64,000 bases of DNA from Prorocentrum cordatum (Eukaryota): assembly GCA_963575745.1 (NCBI GenBank), contig CAUYUJ010000001.1, positions 1,798,001 to 1,862,000 on the forward strand, in the 5' to 3' direction. This document shows, in pieces, positions 9,239 to 64,000 of the stretch. How positions within the stretch are numbered: position 1 is the first letter of the stretch; each line of letters begins with the position of its first letter. The notes below the pieces were generated by a model, which had not been told where the DNA came from, did not search any database, and was given only the letters and a program-made list of their open reading frames with translations. A program made the translations under genes and the position numbers.

Positions 9239-49712
<40,474 letters not shown>

Positions 49713-54148: not shown

Positions 54149-54504
54149 TAAGGCCTCCAGCTTCGGTTGGGGGAGACCGTGTCTCCTGGGAGCTCTCCTG
54201 CCCTACAGCCCCTGGGGGCTGGCTGATGGGCGGGAGCACGACAGCTTTTCGGGTTTCTGCGGAGGCTCCGAGGGAGAGCGAGAGAGAGCGAGAGGGGGAG
54301 AGCGAGAGAGATGGTGCCCGAGAAAGCCCCAAGGACGCCGCAAGGCCCCGACGGGACCTCTCAGGGGGCCTTGGACCTCTCAGGAGCCCTGGTCCGCCAC
54401 GATCTTCGACCTCAGTTGGGAGATCGTGGTTTCGAGAGGCTCTCCTGGAGCCCCTGAGGGCTCCTGGGCGGAATTCGAACACCGTTTCGGGCCTCCCTTG
54501 ATGC

Positions 54505-54553
<49 letters not shown>

Positions 54554-55858
54554 GAGAGAGAGAGAGGGAGAGAGAGAACAAACAGAGAGAGAGAGAGAGC
54601 TCCCGAGAAAGCCCCAAAGAAGGCCACAGGAGGCCCTGGCTTGACCTCTCAGTGACTTCCTATCCGCCACGATCTCAGCCTTACTAGGGAGATCGTAGCT
54701 TCATGGAGCTCTCGTGGAGCCCCTGGGATCTGCTGGACGGGGTTCTGCCAGCGTTTCGGGCCTCGCTGGAAACTCCGAGAGAGAGAGGGAGGAAACAAAC
54801 AATAATAAAGAAATAAGGCCCCCGAGAAAGCCCCAGGGCAGTTTCGTTGGGGCTTTATCGGGGTCCTTCTCTCTCTCTCTCTGTCTCCGTCTCTGTTTCT
54901 GTCACTCTCTCTCTCTCTCTCGGGATCTCCAGCCTCAGTTGGAAGATCGTGGCTCCATGACGCCTTCCTGGAGCCCCTGGAACCTGCTGGACTGGATTCG
55001 GACAGCTTTCCGAGCCTCGCTGGGGACTCCAAGAGGAAGAGAGAGAGAGAGAGACGGCTCCCGAGAAAGTTCCAAGAAGACGACAGGAGGCCCTAGCAGA
55101 GCCTTCCAGGGGGCCCTCATCGGCTCGGGGGGACAGGCAGGTTGGGAGGTCGGGTCGGTCGGGAGGTCGGAGAATCGGGGGGTCGGTCGGAGAGCTGGGG
55201 GGTCGGGGAATCGAGGAGTCTGGGAGTCGGGGCGTCGGGGAGTCGGGGGGGCCAAAACCGAGGAGTCGCGGAGTCGCGGAGTCGGGGGGTCGGGGGAGGG
55301 GCGTCGGGGAGTCGGGGAGTCGGGAAGTCGGCGGGTCGGGGAGTCGTGGAGTCGGGGAGCCTCGGGCGGCCGGGGGGTCGGCCAGTCGGCCAGTCGGGGA
55401 GCCAGGTGGTCGGTGGTTCTTGGGAATCGGGGAGCCAGAACATCGGGGAGTCGAGGAGTCGGGGAGTCGAGGAAATTTGGAGTCGGGGAGGTCGGGGAAT
55501 CGGTTATTCGGAGGTTCGGGGAGTAGGGGAGTCGAGGAGTCGAGGAGTCGGGGGGCAGGGGGTCTGGGAGTCGGGGTGTCGGGGACTCGAGGAGTCGGGG
55601 AGTCGGGCAGTCGGGGGCAGTGGATCGGGGAGTCGGGTCAAGGAGTCGGGAAGTCGGTGCGGGGAGCCGGTGGGCGGGATTCGAATAGGTTTTTGCGCCG
55701 CCTTGGAGGCTTCGAAACAAATAGAGGGCGCTCCCGAGAGAACCATGAGAAGATCACAGGGAGACCGTGGCTTCTTTGGGCTCTCCTGCAGCCCTTCGGG
55801 GCTGCTGAGTGGGATTCTGACAGCTTCTCGGGCCTCTTCCGAGACTCCGAGAGAGGGG

Positions 55859-55890
<32 letters not shown>

Positions 55891-56558
55891 CCAAAAAACA
55901 AAACAGAGAAAGAGAACGAGACTGAGAAGGAGCGGGATAGATATATAAATATATATATATATATACAGATATATATATATATATATATATATATATTGAT
56001 AGAGAGAGGGGGTCCCGAGAAAGCTCCTGATGAGGCCCCGACGGGGCCTCTCGGGGGGCCCTGACTTGCCACGGTCTCCAGCATCGTAGCTTCTTGAAAC
56101 TATCCTGGAGCCCCTGGGAGCTGGTGGGCGGGATTATGGTAGATGTTCGGGCCTCCCTGGAAGCTCTTCGACAGACAGAGTTCCCAAGAACGCCCCAGAT
56201 GAATGCCACTGGAGGCCCTGGGAAGGCTTCTCAGGGGGCCCTGATCCGCCGCGATCTCCAGCTTCGGTTGGGAGATCTTGGCCATTTGGGGCTCTCCTGG
56301 AGCCCATGAGGGCTCCTAGGCGGGAGTCGGACAGCTTTGCGGGCTTCCCTGGAAGCTCCGAGAGAGGGAAAGCGAAGGCTCCCGAGAAAGCCCCAATAAG
56401 AGCCCAGGAGGCCCCAGAGGGGCCTCCCGAGGGGTCCTCGTCCAGCACGGCCTCCAGCCTCGGTTGGGAGATTGTGGGTTCTGGGGGCTCTCCTGTAGCC
56501 CCTGGGAGCTGCTGGGCAGGATGCGGACAGCTTTTCGGGTCTCTCTGGAGGCTCCGTT

Positions 56559-56593
<35 letters not shown>

Positions 56594-56777
56594 AAGAGAG
56601 AGAGAGAGAGAGTCACTGTCTGCGATGATGTTCAATCCAGGCTATGGCGACCACCGTTCTTGCTGTGAGCGTCGCGTGGGCAAGCACGGTCCCTGATATC
56701 GCTCAAGCACGAAATGGCAGCAAGTAAAGCACGGGGACACAGAGAGAGATGGGGGTGACGGATGGTCATGTGTGGGC

Positions 56778-56814
<37 letters not shown>

Positions 56815-57756
56815 CCTCCTCATCAAGATCAAAAAAAACGCGGGCGACTGCGGGGAGCATGGTTAGGCCCAGGTGTCACCACCAGGGGAACAGCCTGTGT
56901 GGGTACAAGCTGGGCATTGGGACCCCATAGGGAAGGATGGAGACGGGGGAGGAATAATATGTTTGGGAGAGGGGAGGAGGGGAGACATTGGGCGGGCGGT
57001 GGGATCGCGTCCGCCGCCTGATGTGGCCCAGGGTTCACCGCCAGGGGAACAGCCTGCGAGGTATACTGGCTGAGTCTCACACGACAGCTGAAGGGTCTGG
57101 ACAGTCGGGCCCAGTGTTCGCCACCTGGGATACAGCCTGCCTGGCATACTAGCTGGGTCACTCGACCACCTGGATCAGAAAAAACGGCAGGGCTCTATGG
57201 AAGCGGTGAGGGAGAGGGAGCGATGATCGATAGGAGGGAGGATCGATAGGATGCGGAGGGAAGGAGGAAGAGAAAGAGGAATGCCCCGAATGAGGTTCCA
57301 CCTTTCAGCACCTGGGATCATCTAATGCCCAGCACTTCACGGCGGTGGGTCCTCCGAGGGGGGTTGGAGGGAACGGCGGTTGGCACAGTGGGGGACCTTG
57401 GGGCTCCACCTGCATATCTAAGGGCACTACTGAGAGCCATCCCCATGGCTCCCGAAACGGCGCTCTGGACCAGGGCCCTTTCCCCCGAACTGAAAACCGT
57501 AAAAGGCAACTCATACGCATTCAGAATCATCTGAATGCCTGAGGCTTCGCGGGCATGGGACCAGTTCAGTACCCAGTAAGACCTGAGAACCTCTAGGTAG
57601 CGGACACCTCCAGCTGGGAGAACAATACACAGGAAGAGGCGTACCAAAACTCCGAAGGCAAACGAGATAAAACACCTATGGACATTTGGCTCCTGCTGCT
57701 GCTCTAACGCTGGGCTGGGGGTTCAGGCAACTCAGGGATCCCATGACGGACTTAAC

Positions 57757-60700
57757 TCAGCCTAGCTTCCCAAGAGCTATATCCATAAGAAGGGAGGCCT
57801 TGTCCTTGTGGTTGCCTGGGAGCTGCTTGCGGGGCACGTGCGAGAGGATGATCTTGTTGGCTACCCCCGTCGCGTGCTTGTCGCTGGCCAGGGACTTCGC
57901 CAACAGGGCGCAGATCTCCTCACGGTTGCCCTTGGCTGGGAGCTTCGTCTTCGCTCCATCCACGGTCTGGATCCACCCGAGCTCCGAGCGCGAGAGGGGC
58001 TTGGACACATCTCCTGGTGACGACGAGCGGGCCCGAGGAGTAGGGGGGCAGCCGTCTGGCGCGAGTGCCTTGCGAAGCTCCTCCGTCTGGCTTGTGAATG
58101 ACGATTTGAGCGCCGCTGCAACATACTCACCCTGCTTGCGGAGCTCGAGCTCCCTCTCGCGGCACGCATTGTCATGGAGGAAGGCAGCATACTCCTTATC
58201 CTTGGACTCTAGCTGCTTGCGGAGGATCTCGATATCCTGCCTGTCGTGGTGGCTGGTCGAGCTCTTGGCTCGGTGGGACTTGTCCCTGCTGTTGCTCCGA
58301 CGGTCCCGTTCACGGTCCCGATCACGGTCACGGTCCGAGCTGGAATCCCTGCGGTCCCGCCGATCACGTCGGCCGCGGTCTCCATCACGGCGGCCATCAC
58401 GCCGATCACGGCGATCCCGATCACGGTCTCGATCACGGTCCTGGTCATAGCCCTTGTCGTAGCCCCGACTGCCAGCCCACTGCTCTGTGCCCCAGCGGGT
58501 GTTGTAGCCTTTGCCCATGGCGCAAACTGGATGAGACGAAGAAGAAAGCCGAAGGTGTTGCCGCCAGACTCGCAGGACTGCTCGGACTCTTTGAGCAAAA
58601 ACACTCCACGGAGCAGCATGGGCAGCGGCAGTGATGACGTCGATGGGGCACCCCAGTAGGAACAACTCGAGGGCCAACTCAAGGACCCACCCCGTCGTGA
58701 CACCGATGCTCAGCTGAAGATACTGGGCTCTCGCGAACCTTCCAGTGAACAGAGAGACGACCATCGCAAACTTACGGGGGGGTCGACCTGGCCACTCGAT
58801 AATGTTAGCACGCGGGCGGGCATCCACATCCCCCGACAGCCAGGGCCGATTGAGGTTCTTAGGGAGTATGACGACCTCGGGACCCACGGCTCGAATCTCC
58901 AAATCCACCCAAATCACGGTTCCGCGTTGCCCTCGATAGTTGAGGCAGGGCTGAGGCGTATGGGATATACTTCACGAAGATAGGCATAAGTACACGTGCG
59001 GCAGTAATGCGTGCTCATACCGATTATGTCATCCACGTAGCGACGTTGGCCGACTGGGGCCGTAGTGTGTCCAGGAAACCGTTGAAAGCCTGCTGTGCCC
59101 AGCCGGGCCTCATCATGTTGAGCCTGGAACTCGAACCAGCACATGAGCACGGATAGGGCCACTCCTGAAAGCACTCCCCCTATGGAGAGTCCCCTCATTT
59201 CATACATGGTGCCACCCAGGGAGACCAGGGATATCCAAGAGAACGAAACCAACGCCTTGTGGATGTCAAACACCGATACTTTAAACCATCCAGGTGGGGT
59301 TGAGCCCAACCAGGGCCTAGTTCGAGGTATGCGAGACTGCTTGACAAGAGTAGCATCAGCACCAAGCCGACGCACCGCCTCTGACGCAATAGCCGTCCAC
59401 GCTTTCGATACTGCGGATGCACTGCGCTGCTCAAATGCCTGGTCCGCATCGGCAACCACAACTCTGATATCCGAGATGGGCTGCGAGCAACGGACACAAT
59501 GTGACGCTATTGCGGACGGGAGGGAGCACCGAAGACGGCGGATCTCGCTTGCGGCATCATTGGTGCTGAAGACCTCCGAGCTGAGCCCGCTCCGCGACAG
59601 GATATCTCGAACTGCCCGACCAATTATCTGGAAACCATACGGTCTTGGTGCTTGGGAACAATTGATGACGCGACGAAGGCAACTGTGGAAAGGTTTGTGA
59701 CACGTGCGCTCCCCCTGGGGTGAGAAACATTTTCCTTTGACCGCAGGGAAAACGCACGGCGGTTTTGTGTCGGCTGATAGCGGAGGCAGGAAGCGCGGCG
59801 TGCACAGCCACGGTGGCAGTGCGGCCACAGCTCGTCCCCACATCCAGACTGCTGCGCCCCTCGGGGAGATGCCCAGCCTTGGCGTCCAGTCGGGGTCGGC
59901 CATCGCCAGCTGGTGGAGGTAACGCATCATGTCGCAGCCGTCACACGCCCACACCTTGTCACACTCCTTGTCGTCCGCGGTGATCACGCACTCGTTGGAT
60001 TCTTCGAGGCTGTTGGCCATGCCTGCCTCCACCTCACGCCACGCTGGGGGCGCTTCAGGTGGCCTGACCCAGCGATTTGACAGCCGCGCGCTGAGGTGTC
60101 GAAAGCCTCGTCGGAGAACGCGGTAGGGGATGCGTGCCTTGGCTGCCCACAAGCTGAGAGCTGCACGTGCCTCTCGCAACGCCCGCCGAGGGCGCGGCCG
60201 CACGGGCAGGCGCCAAGGCCCCTCCAGGCGCCGAAGGCGCCATGGGGCTGACGGTGGCCCGTCTGGCGGGTGCGGTGGCGCCTGCGACGAGAACTCAGCA
60301 CAAAAACGACTGGCAGAGACATGGTCCTTCCATGACGGGGCCTTCGCATAGGTTGCCCTCGGTGGTCTGATGTACACCTCTCGAGCTGGGGCAAACTTCA
60401 TTGACCGTGCCATGGCCGTGATAGCCGAACTAAGCCAACGGCGGTACTCAACCCCCTGAAAGGCGGCAGGAAGCTGATTGGGTGGGCATCTCGCTCGGGG
60501 GAGTCGTAGACGCCGTAGGTGCAAGTCAATGTGATGCATGGCCATCCGCTGCCGATGGAACGACCGTAGAAAGAACTGTGCCTGCGATGCCGCGAGGTAC
60601 AGGTGGGCACCAACCTCCAAACGGCTCCTGAACGTGAACACGGGTAGATCTCTCCACTTGGCTGCGAGGCAGGCAAGGAGGAGCCCGAGCCTCTTGCCTT

Positions 60701-61819
60701 CGAATATCACAGTGGTCCAGCTTCCCCCGTAAGGTGGTAGTGCTCCTCGATCTGGAGTCGGTACAAGATTCCGTACGGCGCTGCCTCTGCAAGTGCCCCT
60801 GGGTATAGGGCCTCCAGACCAGGTCCTTCAGCTCGGGGTGCATGCTCTGCTACAGCCGAGAGGATTGTGGCTGTCCACGCGGGGGCGCTGATGGTCGCCC
60901 GCGGCCCGCGCCTCCACGACGGGGGACGGCGGCGGCGAGCGCTGCGGGTCTTCGCCATCGCGTGGAGTTGCCCCGCTCCGCGTCGCCTGCTGACTGCCTC
61001 GGACTCCATAGCGTCGCACTGGTTGCACTTCGGGTTGAAGCGTCTGATAGCCAATGCTTCAAAGTGAAAACTCGCCTTCTCTGTTCGTAGTAGCAGCACA
61101 GGTAAGAAGAACAAGGACCCTAGGCTCCGCCTGAGGACGCGGTAGCGGGGTCGCCGCCCAGGGCCCACTCGCGGATGGAGTACAGCCCGTACATGTTCAG
61201 CCACTCGGCCAAGCAGCCCTGGAAGGGCGGACTCACGTAGCGCTGCCTTGCCAATGTACAATCCACTAGGACTGCCAAGCACATGCACCACAGCACGGGT
61301 ATCCCCCCGCGGTGGTCCTAGAAAGCACTCGAAGATCCGAAAGGGAAGTGGATGATCCCAGTCGTTGATGGCAGCACGCAAGTCGGGGGCGATCATGACC
61401 AGAATTTGTCTCGCCCACGACGGTAACCTGCGCTGTGCCTGCGCCCGTCGAAGTCGGAGAATGGCGAGCATGACTAGTGCGAAACTGACAACACTCCATA
61501 GATAAACCCCTCGGAGGGGGCGGTAAGCCGGCCTCGTCGGGCCCGCAACGTACTCGAGTAAGAAGGATAACAGGCTCGCCAGCCTGGGGACTGCATGTCT
61601 GTGAAACCTATGGGCCCAGATCCATAGCCGTAGTTGGCTGGACGCTGACTCCTGGGGAACGTGGGACGAACGAAAAAGAGTATCTTGAATTACTGCAAAC
61701 ACGATATTGTGGTCATTGATGTGGCGGATGGGGAGCGGCCAGCGGACCATGAGGCGCTCCTTGGCCTCCTCTGAGGCTATGAGGCCATTGACCAGCGATC
61801 GTTGGAGGACATCGACCAT
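57757..61819 (-). pseudogene. GIY-YIG-RT polyprotein with two 1-nt frameshifts (~60708 and ~58917-58970)
   Basis: GIY-YIG ~61020-61295: VVHVL..GLYIGKA..GLLGRVAEH..FEALAIRRFNPKCN. RT: VITADDK, VFPAVK, LRRVIN, VVADADQAF, RGLSIGGVLS, RRYVDDII, WVDLEI. Thumb: GRFARA..LELFLLGCP. Confidence 0.85.
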
Positions 61820-62153
61820 TCTTGATCTGTGTCGACCTGGCCGTAGTCCCTCCTCAACATTCGCAGGGCCTCCTCCTCTGTGATGTCCGCGTCCGAGTCC
61901 ATCATGACCACATCCATGATCTCCTCGTGTGGTTCTCTCTGGGTTCGCCATGCCCATGTCTGGTTGTTCCTGATCCTCTCCTCCTTCTCTGCCCGCTGGT
62001 GCGTCAACTGCAGGGAGTCCGAGAGGCCTTGGAGGATGTCGCAGTAGTATGTCGACACCTGGCGAAACTGGCCTATCCAGTGGGCCCTGGGCCGCATTGT
62101 CTGATGCGCTCTGCTGTGTCGCCCTGCTCAAAGACCCTCTGGAACGCGGCCAT
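61777..62153 (-). pseudogene. Small upstream ORF (~125 aa, one frameshift near 62085) of the Penelope-like element
   Basis: MAAFQRVFEQGDTAERIRQCGP / RAHWIGQFRQVSTYYCDILQGLSDSLQL...; preceded by a T-tract and AG; overlaps the main ORF start. Confidence 0.45.
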
Positions 62154-62319
62154 GCCAACCTGCGCTGGAGATGAAGAAGAAGGGGATGCGACCCGCTGCT
62201 GCCGACTATGTGCACGAAGAAAAAAAACTATATATGGAAGCGCCCCGTCGGTTGGGACGGCACTCGAACTCTGGATACCCGTCGCCGTATGTGGCCGTGC
62301 TAATCCAGAAGGTGAGAGA

Positions 62320-62386
62320 GTCACTGTTTGCGATGATGTTCCATCCAGGCTATGGCGACCACCGTTCTTGCTGTGAGCGTCGCGTG
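62320..62386 (-). repeat. 5' pseudo-LTR (copy of the 3' terminus 56612-56678)
   Basis: 67 bp, 2 mismatches. Confidence 0.92.
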
Positions 62387-62608
62387 AGAGAGAGAGAGAG
62401 AGAGAGACAAAAAACAACAAAACGAGGGCTCCCGAGAGAGCCCCAAGGAGACCACTGGAGTTCGCGGCAGGGCCTGTCGGGGGGCCTTGACCCGCCACGA
62501 TCTCCAGCCTCGGTTGGGAGATTGCAGCTTCTGGGTCTCTCCTGGAGCCCCTGGGGGCTGTTGGGCAGGATTATGCCAGCTGTTCCAGCCTCCCTGGAGG
62601 CTTCGAGG

Positions 62609-62644
<36 letters not shown>

Positions 62645-62822
62645 GCTCTCGAGAAAGTCCCCAAAGAAGCTCTAGGAGGCCCCAGCAGGGCCACTCAGGC
62701 ACTTCCTACCCGCCACGATCTCCAGCCTCAGTTGGGAGATCGTAGCTTCTTCAATCCCTCCTGGAGCCCCAGGGAACTGGTGGGCGGGATTCTACACGCA
62801 GTTCGGGCCTCGCTGGGGGCTC

Positions 62823-62861
<39 letters not shown>

Positions 62862-62890
62862 CCAAAACAAGAAAAAAATAACTAAGAGAG

Positions 62891-62925
<35 letters not shown>

Positions 62926-64000
62926 AAAAAAATATAACATGGGAGAGGGGAGGGAACATGCTCCGGAGAAAGCCCCAAGGAGACCACAGGAGGTCCCAGC
63001 GGAGCCTCTCAGGGGGCCCTAATCGGCTCAGGGGGTCGGCCTGGTTGGGGAGTCGGGCCGCGTCGGGGGGTCGGAGAGTCGGGGAGTCGGTCGGAGAGCC
63101 CGGAGGTCGGAGAGTCAGGGATTCGGGTACGGGGATTCGGGGACTCGGACAGTCGGGGAGTCGGGGAGGTCGGGGGTCGGTGAGGCGGGGCGTCGGGGCG
63201 TCGGAGAGTCGGGGGAGTCGGGGGAGTCGCGGCTCCGGGGGAGTCAGGGAGTCGGGGAGGTCGGGGAATCGGAGATCCGGGGAGTCGGGGAGTCGGGGGG
63301 TCGGGGCGTCGGGGAGTCGGGGGAGTCGGGGCATCGGGCAGTCGGGGAATGGGGAAGTTGGGGAGCGGGGGGGTCGGGGAATCGGGAAAGCTGGGAGTCG
63401 GGGAGTCGGGGAATCGAGACGTCGGGGGATCGAGAAGTCGGGGAGTCGGGATGTCGGGGACTTGGGGACGCCATCTTGGGCTGTCTTGGGGGCCTCCTGG
63501 GCCGTCTTTGAGGCATCTTTGGGCCTTGTGGGGACATTTTGATGCAATATTGTTCGTATCTGAGGCCGTCTTGGCAGTCTTGGAGCCATCTGGAGCAGAA
63601 ACACACTACCTCCCACCTATCCCAGGTGGCTGGCGCATCAGGCCAAGCGCCAGTGGGCAGTGCGGTCGTCTTACATAGCCCAAGCAAACAAACATCCAGC
63701 ACGCCGTGCACCCCTGTGGCGAGCCCACAGGTGGCGGCGGATCTAGCGTCCTTCCCACCCCGCCACTGTGCTTGTGTCGTGGACCAGAGGTTGCTTCTGA
63801 GACTTCTCGGTGACCTTTTGGAGACTCTGGGACGTCTCAGGGGCATGATGGGATATCTTGAAGCCTCTGAGGGGGCGTCTCGGCGGCCTCTTGAAGCTCG
63901 TGGGGGGCTCTTGAGGACATCGTGTATCGGAGGGCTCCACATTTCAGTTTGAGTTCCCCCTCTAGGGGTCGTTTTAGGGGCCTCTTGGGCCCATCTTGGA

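Follow-up and report, generated by a model that had tools for sequence, protein, structure and literature searches.

Penelope-like elements (PLEs) have been defined by features that include a DK motif, an Arg-rich block, IFD-type spacing, and terminal repeats (Craig et al., 2021, PMC8557442). In two of their groups, Naiad and Chlamys, the GIY-YIG nuclease is N-terminal; the original prediction for the locus described here had wrongly placed the Naiad nuclease at the C-terminus. A CxC motif is given in the same source as unique to, and diagnostic of, Naiad/Chlamys, and the Chlamys hosts named there are green algae, streptophyte algae, Selaginella, and Physarum, with no alveolate in the main text or in one supplement. 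In Fig. S1 of that study, 61 residues separate motifs A and B′ in Penelope and 84 in Naiad_Amil by our count, and position +6 of motif A is T or P in all PLE rows and acidic in 9/9 telomerase reverse transcriptase (TERT) rows.

The window, i.e., the whole 64,000-nt stretch of Prorocentrum cordatum DNA that was analyzed, contains a 5.8-kb retroelement on the minus strand at 62386-56613 (5,774 nt with the short upstream repeat counted). It had been predicted as apparently complete at 56612..62386; it is nearly complete, and those coordinates agree with a terminal direct repeat. The dinoflagellate origin guessed from the letters was likewise supported, by tandem relict spliced-leader copies at 32648-32683, where none are expected by chance. 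A scaffold gap of 100 N lies at 30405-30504, far from the element.

The terminal direct repeat (56599-56678 vs. 62307-62386) is 94% identical over 80 nt (repeat family D20), or 97% over 73 nt by blastn, and has a 66-nt core, R. By repeat comparison, the downstream R (minus strand, 56613..56678) is the 3′ end of the element; in the upstream copy (minus strand, 62307..62386), R occupies 62321-62386 and a degenerate TC stretch occupies 62307-62320. No similarity was found upstream of R in this 5′ copy, which we take for a short pseudo-LTR left by a 5′-truncated tandem copy; a single weak joint between contigs of the public run X1, from 62356 to 56646 with a shorter side of 40 nt, hints at such tandem copies. 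Summed X1 contig depth, which is not equivalent to copy number, was 17.7 in the bin with the downstream R and 1.9 in the flank bin. Both junctions lie in (GA)n, and perfect GA/TC tracts of at least 12 nt make up just 0.65% of the window. At the 5′ end, a (GA)n/(TC)n microsatellite adjoins the element (62387..62407; (GA)11 at 62386-62407 by TRF), and a (GA)25 tract, also found by TRF, adjoins the 3′ end (56562..56612). The latter is the target tract within one copy of a local repeat unit roughly 200-260 bp long; two homologous flank units, at 56369-56612 and 62419-62661, lie 6,050 nt apart (repeat families D7, D11, D13, and D14). In the 5′ untranslated region (minus strand, 61958..62306), a TATA-like box lies near 62235, while a short upstream open reading frame starts at 62153; the region may, on sequence grounds, function as a promoter. 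The 3′ untranslated region (minus strand, 56679..57756) contains three direct repeats of 52 nt each, along with an internal (TC)16 at 56780-56812; its RNA fold is unremarkable (z = +1.35), and neither a hammerhead ribozyme nor any Rfam family was matched in it or in the element. The 66-nt terminal repeat, the (GA)n junctions, and the lack of a hammerhead fit PLEs with an N-terminal endonuclease, the terminal repeat and microsatellite target being known from this single copy.

Three consecutive stop-free minus-strand frames with short overlaps (62227-60707, 506 aa; 60827-58914, 637 aa; and 58971-57757, 404 aa) together contain every motif named in the original prediction (LYIG, R..EH, E...I....PKCN, ADDK, ADADQAF, GLSIGGVLS, YVDD, WVDLEI, and LGCP). 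Read through from the first ATG at 61957 to the stop at 57759-57757, they yield 416 + 597 + 385 residues plus two break positions; the proposed single polyprotein was thus borne out, at about 1,400 rather than ~1350 codons, and intact copies probably encode one polyprotein of about 1,400 aa. The two 1-nt frameshifts were also confirmed. Each break (60707..60709 and 58914..58916, minus strand) is a TGA arising from the loss of exactly one base, as judged from sequence context, from X1 contigs, and from relatives. One X1 contig has an extra base right behind 60707 (depth 8.05/8.05) and one right behind 58914 (depth 22.6/22.6), each insertion removing the TGA and joining the frames, while relative P0001 crosses the first break in one frame and relative P0002 crosses the second. 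This copy is dead: the two deletions each create a TGA, and a His replaces the first catalytic Tyr of the nuclease.

Part 1 of the polyprotein (416 aa, minus strand, 60710..61957) comprises an N-terminal helical domain (~aa 45-215), the nuclease, and an Arg-rich linker; part 2 (597 aa, minus strand, 58917..60707) comprises a helical region resembling the telomerase RNA-binding domain (TRBD), the DK motif, and the fingers and palm of the reverse transcriptase (RT). Part 3 (385 aa and stop, minus strand, 57757..58914) carries motif E together with the thumb (about nt 58546-58914; the thumb profile matches 54 of 152 stored relatives), an Arg/Asp/Ser-rich low-complexity stretch (about 58270-58470), and, at 57760-58236, a coiled-coil-like region that includes a conserved C-terminal module, recognized from the tail alignment and a tail profile matching 14/152 proteins. 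Part 3 also contains 12-nt coding repeats. The extra domain content that had been anticipated is real, conserved, and carried by the family; it takes the form of extensions at both termini of this one polyprotein, N and C, with no separate extra open reading frame.

The nuclease was delimited by alignment and structure modeling (part 1 aa 221-317, nt 61007-61297). Every GIY-YIG catalytic position is present in the family alignment (A2, 21 sequences), in which Y234, G236, G247, R251, E254, H255, E300, and N312 never vary, Y225 and R242 reach at least 90% conservation, and the first GIY tyrosine, a His in this copy, is kept in at least 90% of sequences. The structure model (pLDDT about 90 over aa 100-330) has a strand-strand-helix-helix-strand-helix order at aa 221-325, and its best two matches among 48,161 PDB representatives were GIY-YIG nucleases, namely T4 EndoII (Z 6.7) and, above it, I-TevI (rmsd 2.3, 86/92 residues), at a Z of 7.0 that a common structural arrangement alone can give; the UvrC GIY-YIG domain ranked 16th (Z 5.1). 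A GIY-YIG profile match, one of the checks set beforehand, was absent from Pfam searches of the window frames and 14 relatives. The predicted N-terminal GIY-YIG domain upstream of the RT was accepted despite this, because all catalytic positions are conserved and the fold matches. The Arg-rich linker follows at about aa 330-352, with R342, R344, and R350 near-invariant in the 21 sequences. In these sequences, the stretch from the nuclease to the DK motif contains no conserved Cys; the CxC motif is absent, and the family consensus shows no visible GxKF/Y motif either. The predicted likeness to Chlamys thus stands for architecture and is limited to it because CxC is missing.

The RT model (pLDDT 90.4, pTM 0.87) matched telomerase RTs first in three structure searches. 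They were the best 17 Foldseek matches (E 8e-8 to 7e-4), the top 13 in the VIA second look (Z 11.7-14.5, 287-363 residues aligned), and ranks 1-3 in a Foldseek-independent search (Z 13.7, 13.5, and 11.8). R2 (Z 11.5-11.7), LINE-1 (11.0), and group II (10.3) RTs followed in the VIA second look, the margin over R2/LINE-1 being only about 2 Z units, and no PLE structure was among the matches. At E ≤ 1, none of the three window frames had a Pfam match, and PDB sequence and profile searches gave none for either domain, including TERT at the sequence level; only RVT_1 recurred among Pfam families at a permissive threshold (5/47 members, best E 3.4e-4). The RT alignment (A3) places the DK motif upstream of RT1 at nt 59967-59975 (D246 and W253 near-invariant), the start of fingers and palm at part 2 aa 324 (nt 59738), the motif A Asp at nt 59448-59450, and YVDD at nt 59028-59039, and contains three family-invariant Cys/His clusters. 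Motif A, in which the Asp is followed by an aromatic residue at +5 and an acidic one at +6 (E in 74/74 sequences), lies 81-90 residues (median 86, 74 sequences) from motif B′. Structural superposition also aligns a stretch some 120-140 residues ahead of the fingers (part 2, about aa 120-260) with the TRBD; in 12 of the 13 best TERT rows, the model range starts at 115-156.

From the observed domain identities, nuclease-RT fusion, multicopy state, terminal repeat, and microsatellite junctions, the locus is best explained, with a probability of about three in four, as one dead genomic copy of an autonomous retrotransposon with the N-terminal-endonuclease architecture of PLEs, in the broad sense of that term. 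It is rather unlikely that the family instead represents a new class of GIY-YIG retroelements outside the strict PLEs, a lineage that branches next to telomerase or in between it and PLEs and that retained telomerase-like RT features or gained its nuclease independently. The telomerase pattern in motif A (shared with 9/9 TERT rows and 0 PLE rows in Fig. S1 of PMC8557442), the TRBD co-alignment, the missing CxC, the failure of RVT_1 to detect the family, and the Cys/His clusters, which are absent from the PLE descriptions consulted in that source, all point in this direction. However, telomerase likeness at the motif level may be convergent, and a best match to telomerase is expected for any PLE, because the RTs of PLEs collectively form the sister group of TERT. 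Furthermore, the DK motif, the Arg-rich block, the N-terminal nuclease without CCHH, and the combination of a terminal repeat, microsatellite junctions, and no hammerhead are Naiad/Chlamys traits, and Physarum_Pp1, which groups with Chlamys, likewise lacks CxC (PMC8557442).

The RT frame retrieved 447 database representatives at E ≤ 1e-3, which speaks against a chance reading; their median RT identity is 28%, in line with the divergence originally proposed. Linkage of endonuclease and RT in other copies had been set beforehand as a check: both domains occur in 24 of 152 stored relatives, most of which are 5′-truncated fragments, and the nuclease never occurs in these proteins without the RT. 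When the RT tree is rooted at its midpoint, proteins that carry the nuclease are found in both halves. In X1, 259 contigs map to the element, 57 at ≥99% identity, 95 at 95-99%, 68 at 90-95%, and 39 at <90%. The contig spread, the number of representatives, and the tree positions of the nuclease-bearing proteins all favor mobility. The family is large, old, and passed over by Pfam and standard annotation libraries; placed by motifs and architecture described for PLEs, it is possibly a new clade. Dinoflagellate genes are often multicopy and retroposed, and the relict spliced leader elsewhere in the window indicates that retroposition occurs here, which would suit a cellular RT-nuclease gene, domesticated or host-derived, that was amplified in the same manner. 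This is nonetheless very improbable, given copies that range from >99% to <90% identity, the frameshifts and lost catalytic Tyr in this copy, the mostly 5′-truncated relatives, and a local repeat unit interrupted exactly inside its (GA)n tract by a sequence with its own terminal repeat. Least probable of all is an accidental joint reading of two unrelated neighboring genes or an assembly chimera, for which the different frames of the nuclease and RT parts and the distant scaffold gap could be cited, but against which stand the 24 independent database proteins with both domains, P0001 (1,033 aa, 66% identical), which spans the junction with nuclease and RT in one frame, and the X1 contig that restores the frame with one base.

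As a PLE in the broad sense, an intact copy would encode, in order, the helical N-terminal domain, a putative GIY-YIG nickase without a CCHH zinc finger, the Arg-rich linker, the helical domain superposing on the TRBD, the RT, the thumb, and the Arg/Asp/Ser-rich coiled-coil tail. After transcription, which is presumed, the nuclease would nick chromosomal DNA, here probably within a (GA)n/(TC)n microsatellite, and the RT would copy the element RNA from the freed 3′-OH by target-primed reverse transcription. A second, heavily 5′-truncated copy laid in tandem could then account for the 66-nt pseudo-LTR at the 5′ end.

The nuclease shares its fold and catalytic residue set with the homing and repair nucleases I-TevI, T4 EndoII, and the UvrC N-terminal domain, which stand alone or with DNA-binding domains, whereas here it is fused to an RT and its sequence similarity to them is below the reach of Pfam. 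With TERT, the top structural match, the RT shares the acidic residue after the motif A aromatic, the motif B′ G-x-P-x-G-x-x-x-S, and the co-aligning upstream helical domain; unlike TERT, the element is multicopy and dispersed, has a nuclease and terminal repeats, and shows nothing that suggests a separate RNA template. In canonical Penelope/Poseidon, Neptune, and Nematis elements, GIY-YIG is likewise fused to a TERT-related RT; they have a DK(G) motif and form pseudo-LTRs as well, but their nuclease is C-terminal with CCHH, their pseudo-LTRs contain hammerheads, and they have no IFD.

The remaining comparisons follow descriptions in PMC8557442. Physarum_Pp1/Pp2 resemble the element in lacking CxC while grouping with Chlamys, in the IFD, and in a protist host, but their nuclease is a remnant without the R, H, E, and N that the element family conserves. 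Naiad, from animals, shares the N-terminal nuclease, a basic linker, the lack of a canonical hammerhead, an IFD-sized insertion (84 residues in Naiad_Amil vs. the family median of 86), pseudo-LTRs, and microsatellite targets; its CCHH and CX2-5CxxC fingers, CxC motif, DKA, 3.4-4.4 kb length, (TA)n target, and animal hosts are its own. In BLAST searches, the RTs of Chlamys and Naiad are said to recover canonical PLEs; the RT of this element, by contrast, retrieves nothing known. The element further differs from Chlamys in lacking CxC, in its (GA)n rather than (CA)n or (C)n target, in a telomerase-like motif A rather than the ...LYTN... type, in the three invariant Cys/His clusters (compared by description), in the conserved helical N-terminal domain and Arg/Asp/Ser-rich coiled-coil tail, and in its dinoflagellate host. 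With Chlamys it has in common the N-terminal GIY-YIG without CCHH and CX2-5CxxC fingers and with R, H, E, and N kept, the Arg-rich block after the nuclease, a DK motif without a fixed third residue, added motif A-B′ length at the IFD position, no canonical hammerhead, a size within the 3.3-8.2 kb range, accessory domains, tandem repeats near the 3′ end, a short terminal repeat, and insertion into microsatellites.

The coding region of the element (62386–56613 on the minus strand) is divided among three stop-free minus-strand frames with short overlaps, 62227–60707 (506 aa), 60827–58914 (637 aa), and 58971–57757 (404 aa), and all of the motifs quoted in the original prediction were found within them. 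Read from the first ATG (61957), the polyprotein spans about 1,400 codons in three pieces of 416, 597, and 385 residues, which carry the nuclease, the reverse transcriptase (RT), and the thumb and tail, respectively. The two 1-nt frameshifts that had been called from the sequence are borne out by contigs from X1, a public DNA run, compared over window positions 56400–62600: one contig has an extra base directly behind 60707 (break 1; depth 8.05/8.05, n = 1 contig), another has an extra base directly behind 58914 (break 2; depth 22.6/22.6, n = 1 contig), and with these bases the frames rejoin. The window reads TGA at both breaks; in each case the extra base abolishes the TGA and the downstream frame goes on. 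Two related database proteins also cross these positions in one frame, P0001 (1,033 aa, 66% identical) from the nuclease into the RT across break 1, and P0002 (932 aa, 28% identical) from YVDD into the next motif across break 2. Selenocysteine TGAs occur in some Naiads, a clade of Penelope-like elements (PLEs), but that reading was rejected for both TGAs here, since a shift by one base is needed before the homologous frame is regained.

At 58920 and 58944, too, the X1 contig that restores 58914 does not agree with the window; it therefore derives from another copy, and the two one-base losses in the window could be either real mutations or assembly errors. Both breaks (60707–60709 and 58914–58916) lie in the same short context, G-T-G, the lost base, then A-T, in which each loss creates a TGA; this common context may be coincidental, may mark a hotspot of mutation, or may reflect a systematic error of the assembly. 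Additionally, the window copy has a His codon (61283–61285, minus strand) at the position of the first Tyr of the GIY motif, which is Tyr in 20/20 aligned relatives. Judged by its sequence as read, the window copy is thus unable to transpose, given its two frameshifts and the loss of a catalytic Tyr. No second copy of the element was found within the 64-kb window by blastn or tblastn. Upstream of the polyprotein, the 5′ UTR contains a short open reading frame of 26 codons in a different frame (62073–62153, minus strand, from ATG 62153), and a TATA-like box is located near 62235 (minus strand) in the 5′ UTR region.

For the nuclease, the 416 N-terminal residues of the window polyprotein were aligned with 20 relatives; conservation of the nuclease motifs, like that of the DK motif and of motifs C and E of the RT, was taken from alignment summaries. 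Eight residues were invariant in the 21 sequences (Y234, G236, G247, R251, E254, H255, E300, and N312) and five more were conserved in at least 90% (Y225, R242, R271, Y272, and R276). The alignment therefore holds the GIY...YIG pair, with the two tyrosines about 10 residues apart, together with the superfamily Arg, His, Glu, and Asn, and R251, H255, E300, N312, and R242 are all kept in the window copy. Neither the GIY-YIG core nor the region ahead of it has a conserved Cys in the same 21 sequences, and therefore there is no CCHH finger. The AlphaFold model of the 416-aa part had a mean pLDDT of 72, rising to about 90 over residues 100–330, and residues 221–325 (pLDDT about 90) were predicted to form a strand-strand-helix-helix-strand-helix arrangement. 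Among 48,161 PDB representatives, the I-TevI catalytic domain ranked first (Z 7.0, rmsd 2.3, 86/92 residues, model residues 221–317), T4 EndoII second (Z 6.7, rmsd 2.7, 99 residues aligned), and the UvrC GIY-YIG domain 16th (Z 5.1), all of them modest scores, since Z values below 8 can reflect a common arrangement. The N-terminal domain was nonetheless accepted as a predicted GIY-YIG nuclease fold because the match spans the domain in full and superposes the catalytic residues, and the GIY-YIG domain that the original prediction placed ahead of the RT is upheld by the two top-ranked folds, both GIY-YIG nucleases, and by the conservation of the catalytic positions in the family.

Other searches with the nuclease were negative. 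The lack of a GIY-YIG profile hit had been named in the original prediction as refuting it, and Pfam indeed returned none for the window frames (E ≤ 1) or for 14 long relatives (E ≤ 0.1); the one weak Pfam match was to RE_Eco29kI, at E 0.2 in 1/47 members. Foldseek with the whole 416-aa model gave no match at E ≤ 0.001, the list being dominated by the helical N-terminal domain, and nothing was found with the nuclease part in a word-indexed search of proteins of 228–728 aa.

The RT was similarly elusive at the sequence level. Pfam found no family in the three window frames at E ≤ 1 and, in the 14 long relatives, only RVT_1 in P0002 (E 0.069), below the cut-off; at a permissive threshold RVT_1 was the only family that recurred, in 5/47 members (best E 3.4e-4). 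Neither the RT frame (phmmer) nor a 27-sequence RT profile matched any PDB sequence, and a word-indexed protein search with the RT frame and its alignment of 47 sequences recovered only P0001 and P0002. The family is thus invisible to Pfam and PDB sequence searches, and therefore it is probably filed as unknown repeat or hypothetical genes in dinoflagellate genome annotations. Such annotations are notoriously rich in unclassified repeats.

The structure of the middle piece was more informative. Its model (597 residues, built on the 47 sequences) had a pLDDT of 90.4 and a pTM of 0.87, and Foldseek against the PDB gave telomerase RTs of human, Candida, yeast, Tetrahymena, and Tribolium for each of its first 17 matches (E 8e-8 to 7e-4), followed by calicivirus RdRp (9.3e-4), DRT9 (3.4e-3), group II intron RT (4.4e-3), and LINE-1 ORF2p (7.7e-3). 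The VIA structure search likewise placed telomerase RTs in the top 13 positions (Z 11.7–14.5, 287–363 residues aligned), compared with R2 (Z 11.7 and 11.5, 236–247 residues aligned), LINE-1 (11.0), and group II (10.3), and in a search independent of Foldseek telomerase RTs took ranks 1–3 (Z 13.7, 13.5, and 11.8) ahead of R2 (11.5) and LINE-1 (11.0). The longer telomerase alignments start at model residues 115–156, compared with 257–261 for R2, and the extra stretch is a helical region that falls over the telomerase RNA-binding domain (TRBD) with an rmsd above 5 Å. Because this superposition is loose, the region upstream of the RT is only tentatively regarded as TRBD-like in the model. No PLE structures were among the structural matches; a telomerase top match to the model would be expected of a PLE-type RT, but would fit other telomerase relatives equally.

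Conserved motifs in the RT include a DK motif with the consensus DDK.....W, in which D246 and W253 are near-invariant in the 47 sequences and which lies between strands 240–245 and 252–256 of the model. In a larger set of 74 sequences, motif A has D in 74/74, Q in 71/74, F or Y in 74/74, and then E in 74/74, and the distance from the motif A Asp to the motif B′ Gly is 81–90 residues (median 86). An insertion that, judged by length only, is of the size of an insertion-in-fingers domain (IFD) is present between RT3(A) and RT4(B). Three Cys/His clusters, C327/C336/H341/C343, C404/C407, and C569/C572, are invariant or nearly so in the family and may be zinc sites; the RT fingers and palm are encoded at 59738–58990 (minus strand).

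To assess the extent of the family, 1.84 billion protein representatives (clustered at 50%) were searched with HMMER. At E ≤ 1e-3 there were 447 matching proteins; 218 remained at E ≤ 1e-10 and 30 at E ≤ 1e-30. The best 150 of the 447 were taken for further analysis. Among the relatives collected, the RT-core profile matched 144/152 relatives and the nuclease profile 24/152; all 24 also had the RT, and the nuclease alone was present in 0/152. The linkage of nuclease and RT that had been predicted for other copies is thus found in 24 relatives, and P0001 and X1 contigs bridge the break between the two domains. The listed relatives that lack a nuclease match are shorter, as expected of 5′-truncated copies or partial gene models. 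Profiles of two further regions had fewer matches among those listed, 17/152 for a conserved helical N-terminal domain and 14/152 for an Arg/Asp/Ser-rich coiled-coil C-terminal tail.

Motif counts and the tree were based on 74 of 145 RT matches that covered at least 80% of the profile, the window's read-through protein included. Pairwise RT identity in these 74 sequences was low (median 28%, 5th–95th percentile 22.5–39.8%), and in a FastTree phylogeny of the RT cores (245 columns, midpoint root) nuclease-bearing proteins fell on both sides of the root, and therefore the nuclease-RT fusion is, on this tree, probably ancestral to the family. In X1, 259 contigs matched the element, 57 at ≥99% identity, 95 at 95–99%, 68 at 90–95%, and 39 below 90%, and the subfamily is therefore multicopy, with both old and young copies; more distant copies were present in a metagenome run, X2. 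Scanning of metagenome, viral, and prokaryote contig collections revealed no relatives. A GIY-YIG-fold nuclease fused upstream of a telomerase-like RT, in a multicopy and diverged family, can thus be considered established.

The termini of the element form a direct repeat, 56599–56678 and 62307–62386, with 80 nt at 94% identity (73 nt at 97% by blastn), whose unique core, R, is 66 nt long (56613–56678 and 62321–62386). On the minus strand, the upstream R directly follows a (TC)n tract, 14 nt of degenerate TC lie between it and the 5′ UTR, and the downstream R is the end of the element and leads into (TC)n; the repeat copies share no similarity upstream of R. The flanks at 56369–56612 and 62419–62661 are homologous, lie 6,050 nt apart (repeat families D7, D11, D13, and D14), and are units of a local repeat of roughly 200–260 bp; the element therefore splits one unit inside its (GA)n tract and is bordered by (GA)25 and, at its opposite end, by (GA)11. 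It is thus also established that this copy has a terminal repeat of its own and interrupts a unit of a local repeat within a microsatellite. Perfect GA/TC tracts of at least 12 nt make up 416/64,000 nt (0.65%) of the window and 14 of the 19 tracts lie within 54–63 kb, and this one copy in (GA)n is too few for a bias in insertion. The surroundings (54200–56612 and 62387–63470) consist of repeat units of roughly 200–260 bp, each with a (GA)n tract, and long arrays with a G-rich 8-nt period are present at 55151–55640 and 63109–63470.

The upstream R is read as a very short pseudo-LTR from a 5′-truncated tandem copy, a reading that rests on one copy. A contig joint from 62356 to 56646 has a shorter side of 40 nt (n = 1) and is too weak to count for tandem copies, and the pseudo-LTR and 5′ truncation traits of PLEs are accordingly represented here by one 66–80-nt terminal repeat, one weak joint, and the N-terminal truncation of most relatives. 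The element's 3′ UTR contains three 52-nt direct repeats that are 65–79% alike (56866–56917, 57025–57076, and 57108–57159, minus strand) and an internal (TC)16 tract (56780–56812, minus strand). RNA folding of the last 588 nt showed nothing out of the ordinary (z = +1.35; 89/100 shuffles fold as well). In 56300–62700, Rfam gave no credible family of any kind at E ≤ 10, and no hammerhead ribozyme was among the seven weak matches; hammerheads would be expected in canonical PLE clades but are likewise absent in Naiads and most Chlamys elements (Craig et al., 2021; PMC8557442, available text).

By analogy with known elements, the GIY-YIG nuclease of an intact copy would nick (GA)n/(TC)n DNA, after which target-primed reverse transcription would follow, with the polyprotein binding its own RNA and priming cDNA synthesis from the nick. 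Reverse transcription would begin inside the element RNA, which is the reason for the PLE "tail" in the available text of Frangieh et al. (2024; PMC11167929). Partial tandem copies would form pseudo-LTRs, as in the available description of PLEs (Craig et al., 2021; PMC8557442), and a truncated tandem copy may have left the upstream R.

Elsewhere in the window, a search with the dinoflagellate spliced-leader core identified two overlapping tandem matches at 32648–32683 (plus strand; 1 and 3 mismatches, 0.00 expected by chance), directly preceded by a (CCT)n run. Tandem relict leaders are a mark of retroposed dinoflagellate genes, and these therefore support the original label of a dinoflagellate-like genome. 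Three successive long open frames (608, 739, and 934 aa) at 40357–47066 (plus strand), the middle one with matches to Exo_endo_phos (E 5e-6) and RVT_1 (E 8e-7), probably represent a LINE-like retrotransposon that is also frameshifted. A run of 100 N at 30405–30504 is a scaffold gap, and the window is therefore from a scaffolded assembly.

Endonuclease-bearing PLEs were long thought to be restricted to animals, until the description of Naiad and Chlamys (Craig et al., 2021; PMC8557442, available text) added a slime mould as well as the green lineage. The main text and one supplement file of that study contain no dinoflagellate or alveolate terms, and a full-text literature search, judged by titles and the starts of abstracts, found no description of such an element in dinoflagellates. 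A large, old dinoflagellate family that shares this permuted architecture would extend the group to alveolates, and such a spread of PLEs would favor the view that nuclease and RT were fused close to the eukaryote root.

The element is regarded as PLE-type in its architecture, its nuclease being N-terminal; the host group is new and the motif set distinct. In the available text and figures of Craig et al. (2021; PMC8557442), PLEs combine a GIY-YIG nuclease and an RT in one ORF, as does this family, and have a DK(G) motif before RT1, whose context in the element (DDK.....W) resembles rows of Fig. S4. In Naiad and Chlamys the nuclease is N-terminal of the RT, as in the element, and the C-terminal nuclease that the original prediction assigned to Naiad was therefore an error. 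Both clades also have a basic block past the nuclease, comparable to the near-invariant R342, R344, and R350 just after the nuclease of the element; both have an IFD between RT3(A) and RT4(B), and by our counts from Fig. S1 the A-to-B′ spacing is 84 in Naiad_Amil and 105 in Chlamys-1_cRei, against 61 in Penelope, 118 in human TERT, and a median of 86 in the element family; both have pseudo-LTRs and a bias for insertion in microsatellites, to which the terminal repeat and (GA)n junctions of this single copy may correspond; and Naiads and most Chlamys lack a hammerhead, as the element does at Rfam E ≤ 10. Chlamys elements are 3.3–8.2 kb long, a range that includes the 5.7 kb of the element, and their nuclease lacks both the CCHH and the CX2-5CxxC fingers, as does that of the element. 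The proposal that the element is Chlamys-like thus holds for its architecture (N-terminal nuclease and no CCHH), but not for the CxC motif (zf-CDGSH-like), which lies between the nuclease and GxKF/Y, is described in the Fig. S4 legend as exclusive to Chlamys and Naiads, and is missing from the element; the stretch from N312 to the DK motif has no conserved Cys in the 21 sequences, and in the available text the absence of CxC is reported only for Physarum_Pp1 and Pp2. No GxKF/Y motif stands out between the nuclease and DK in the consensus of the 21 family sequences.

Other features separate the family from the described PLE clades, and it may be a new deep clade, a placement that hinges on RT phylogeny. 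The Cys/His clusters of the RT, the helical N-terminal domain, and the RS/RD-rich coiled-coil tail are not described for PLEs in the available text of Craig et al. (2021; PMC8557442), and point to biology not described there. The acidic residue after the motif A aromatic is shared by the element and 9/9 TERT rows of Fig. S1, whereas the PLE rows have T or P. These telomerase-like traits (the structural matches, motif A, the TRBD-like domain, and the IFD-sized insertion) bear on the relation between telomerase and retrotransposons. We give a chance of roughly one in four that the family forms a separate, deeply branching clade of mobile telomerase relatives armed with a nuclease, abundant in dinoflagellates and placed either beside TERT or closer to it than are the PLE clades described so far, which kept a TRBD-like domain, an IFD, and a telomerase-type motif A; if so, no known mobile element would be more closely related to telomerase, and the family would give direct access to the divergence of telomerase and retrotransposons. 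TERT itself is a single-copy gene without a nuclease that uses a separate RNA template at chromosome ends, whereas the element is multicopy, diverged, nuclease-fused, flanked by terminal repeats, and interstitial.
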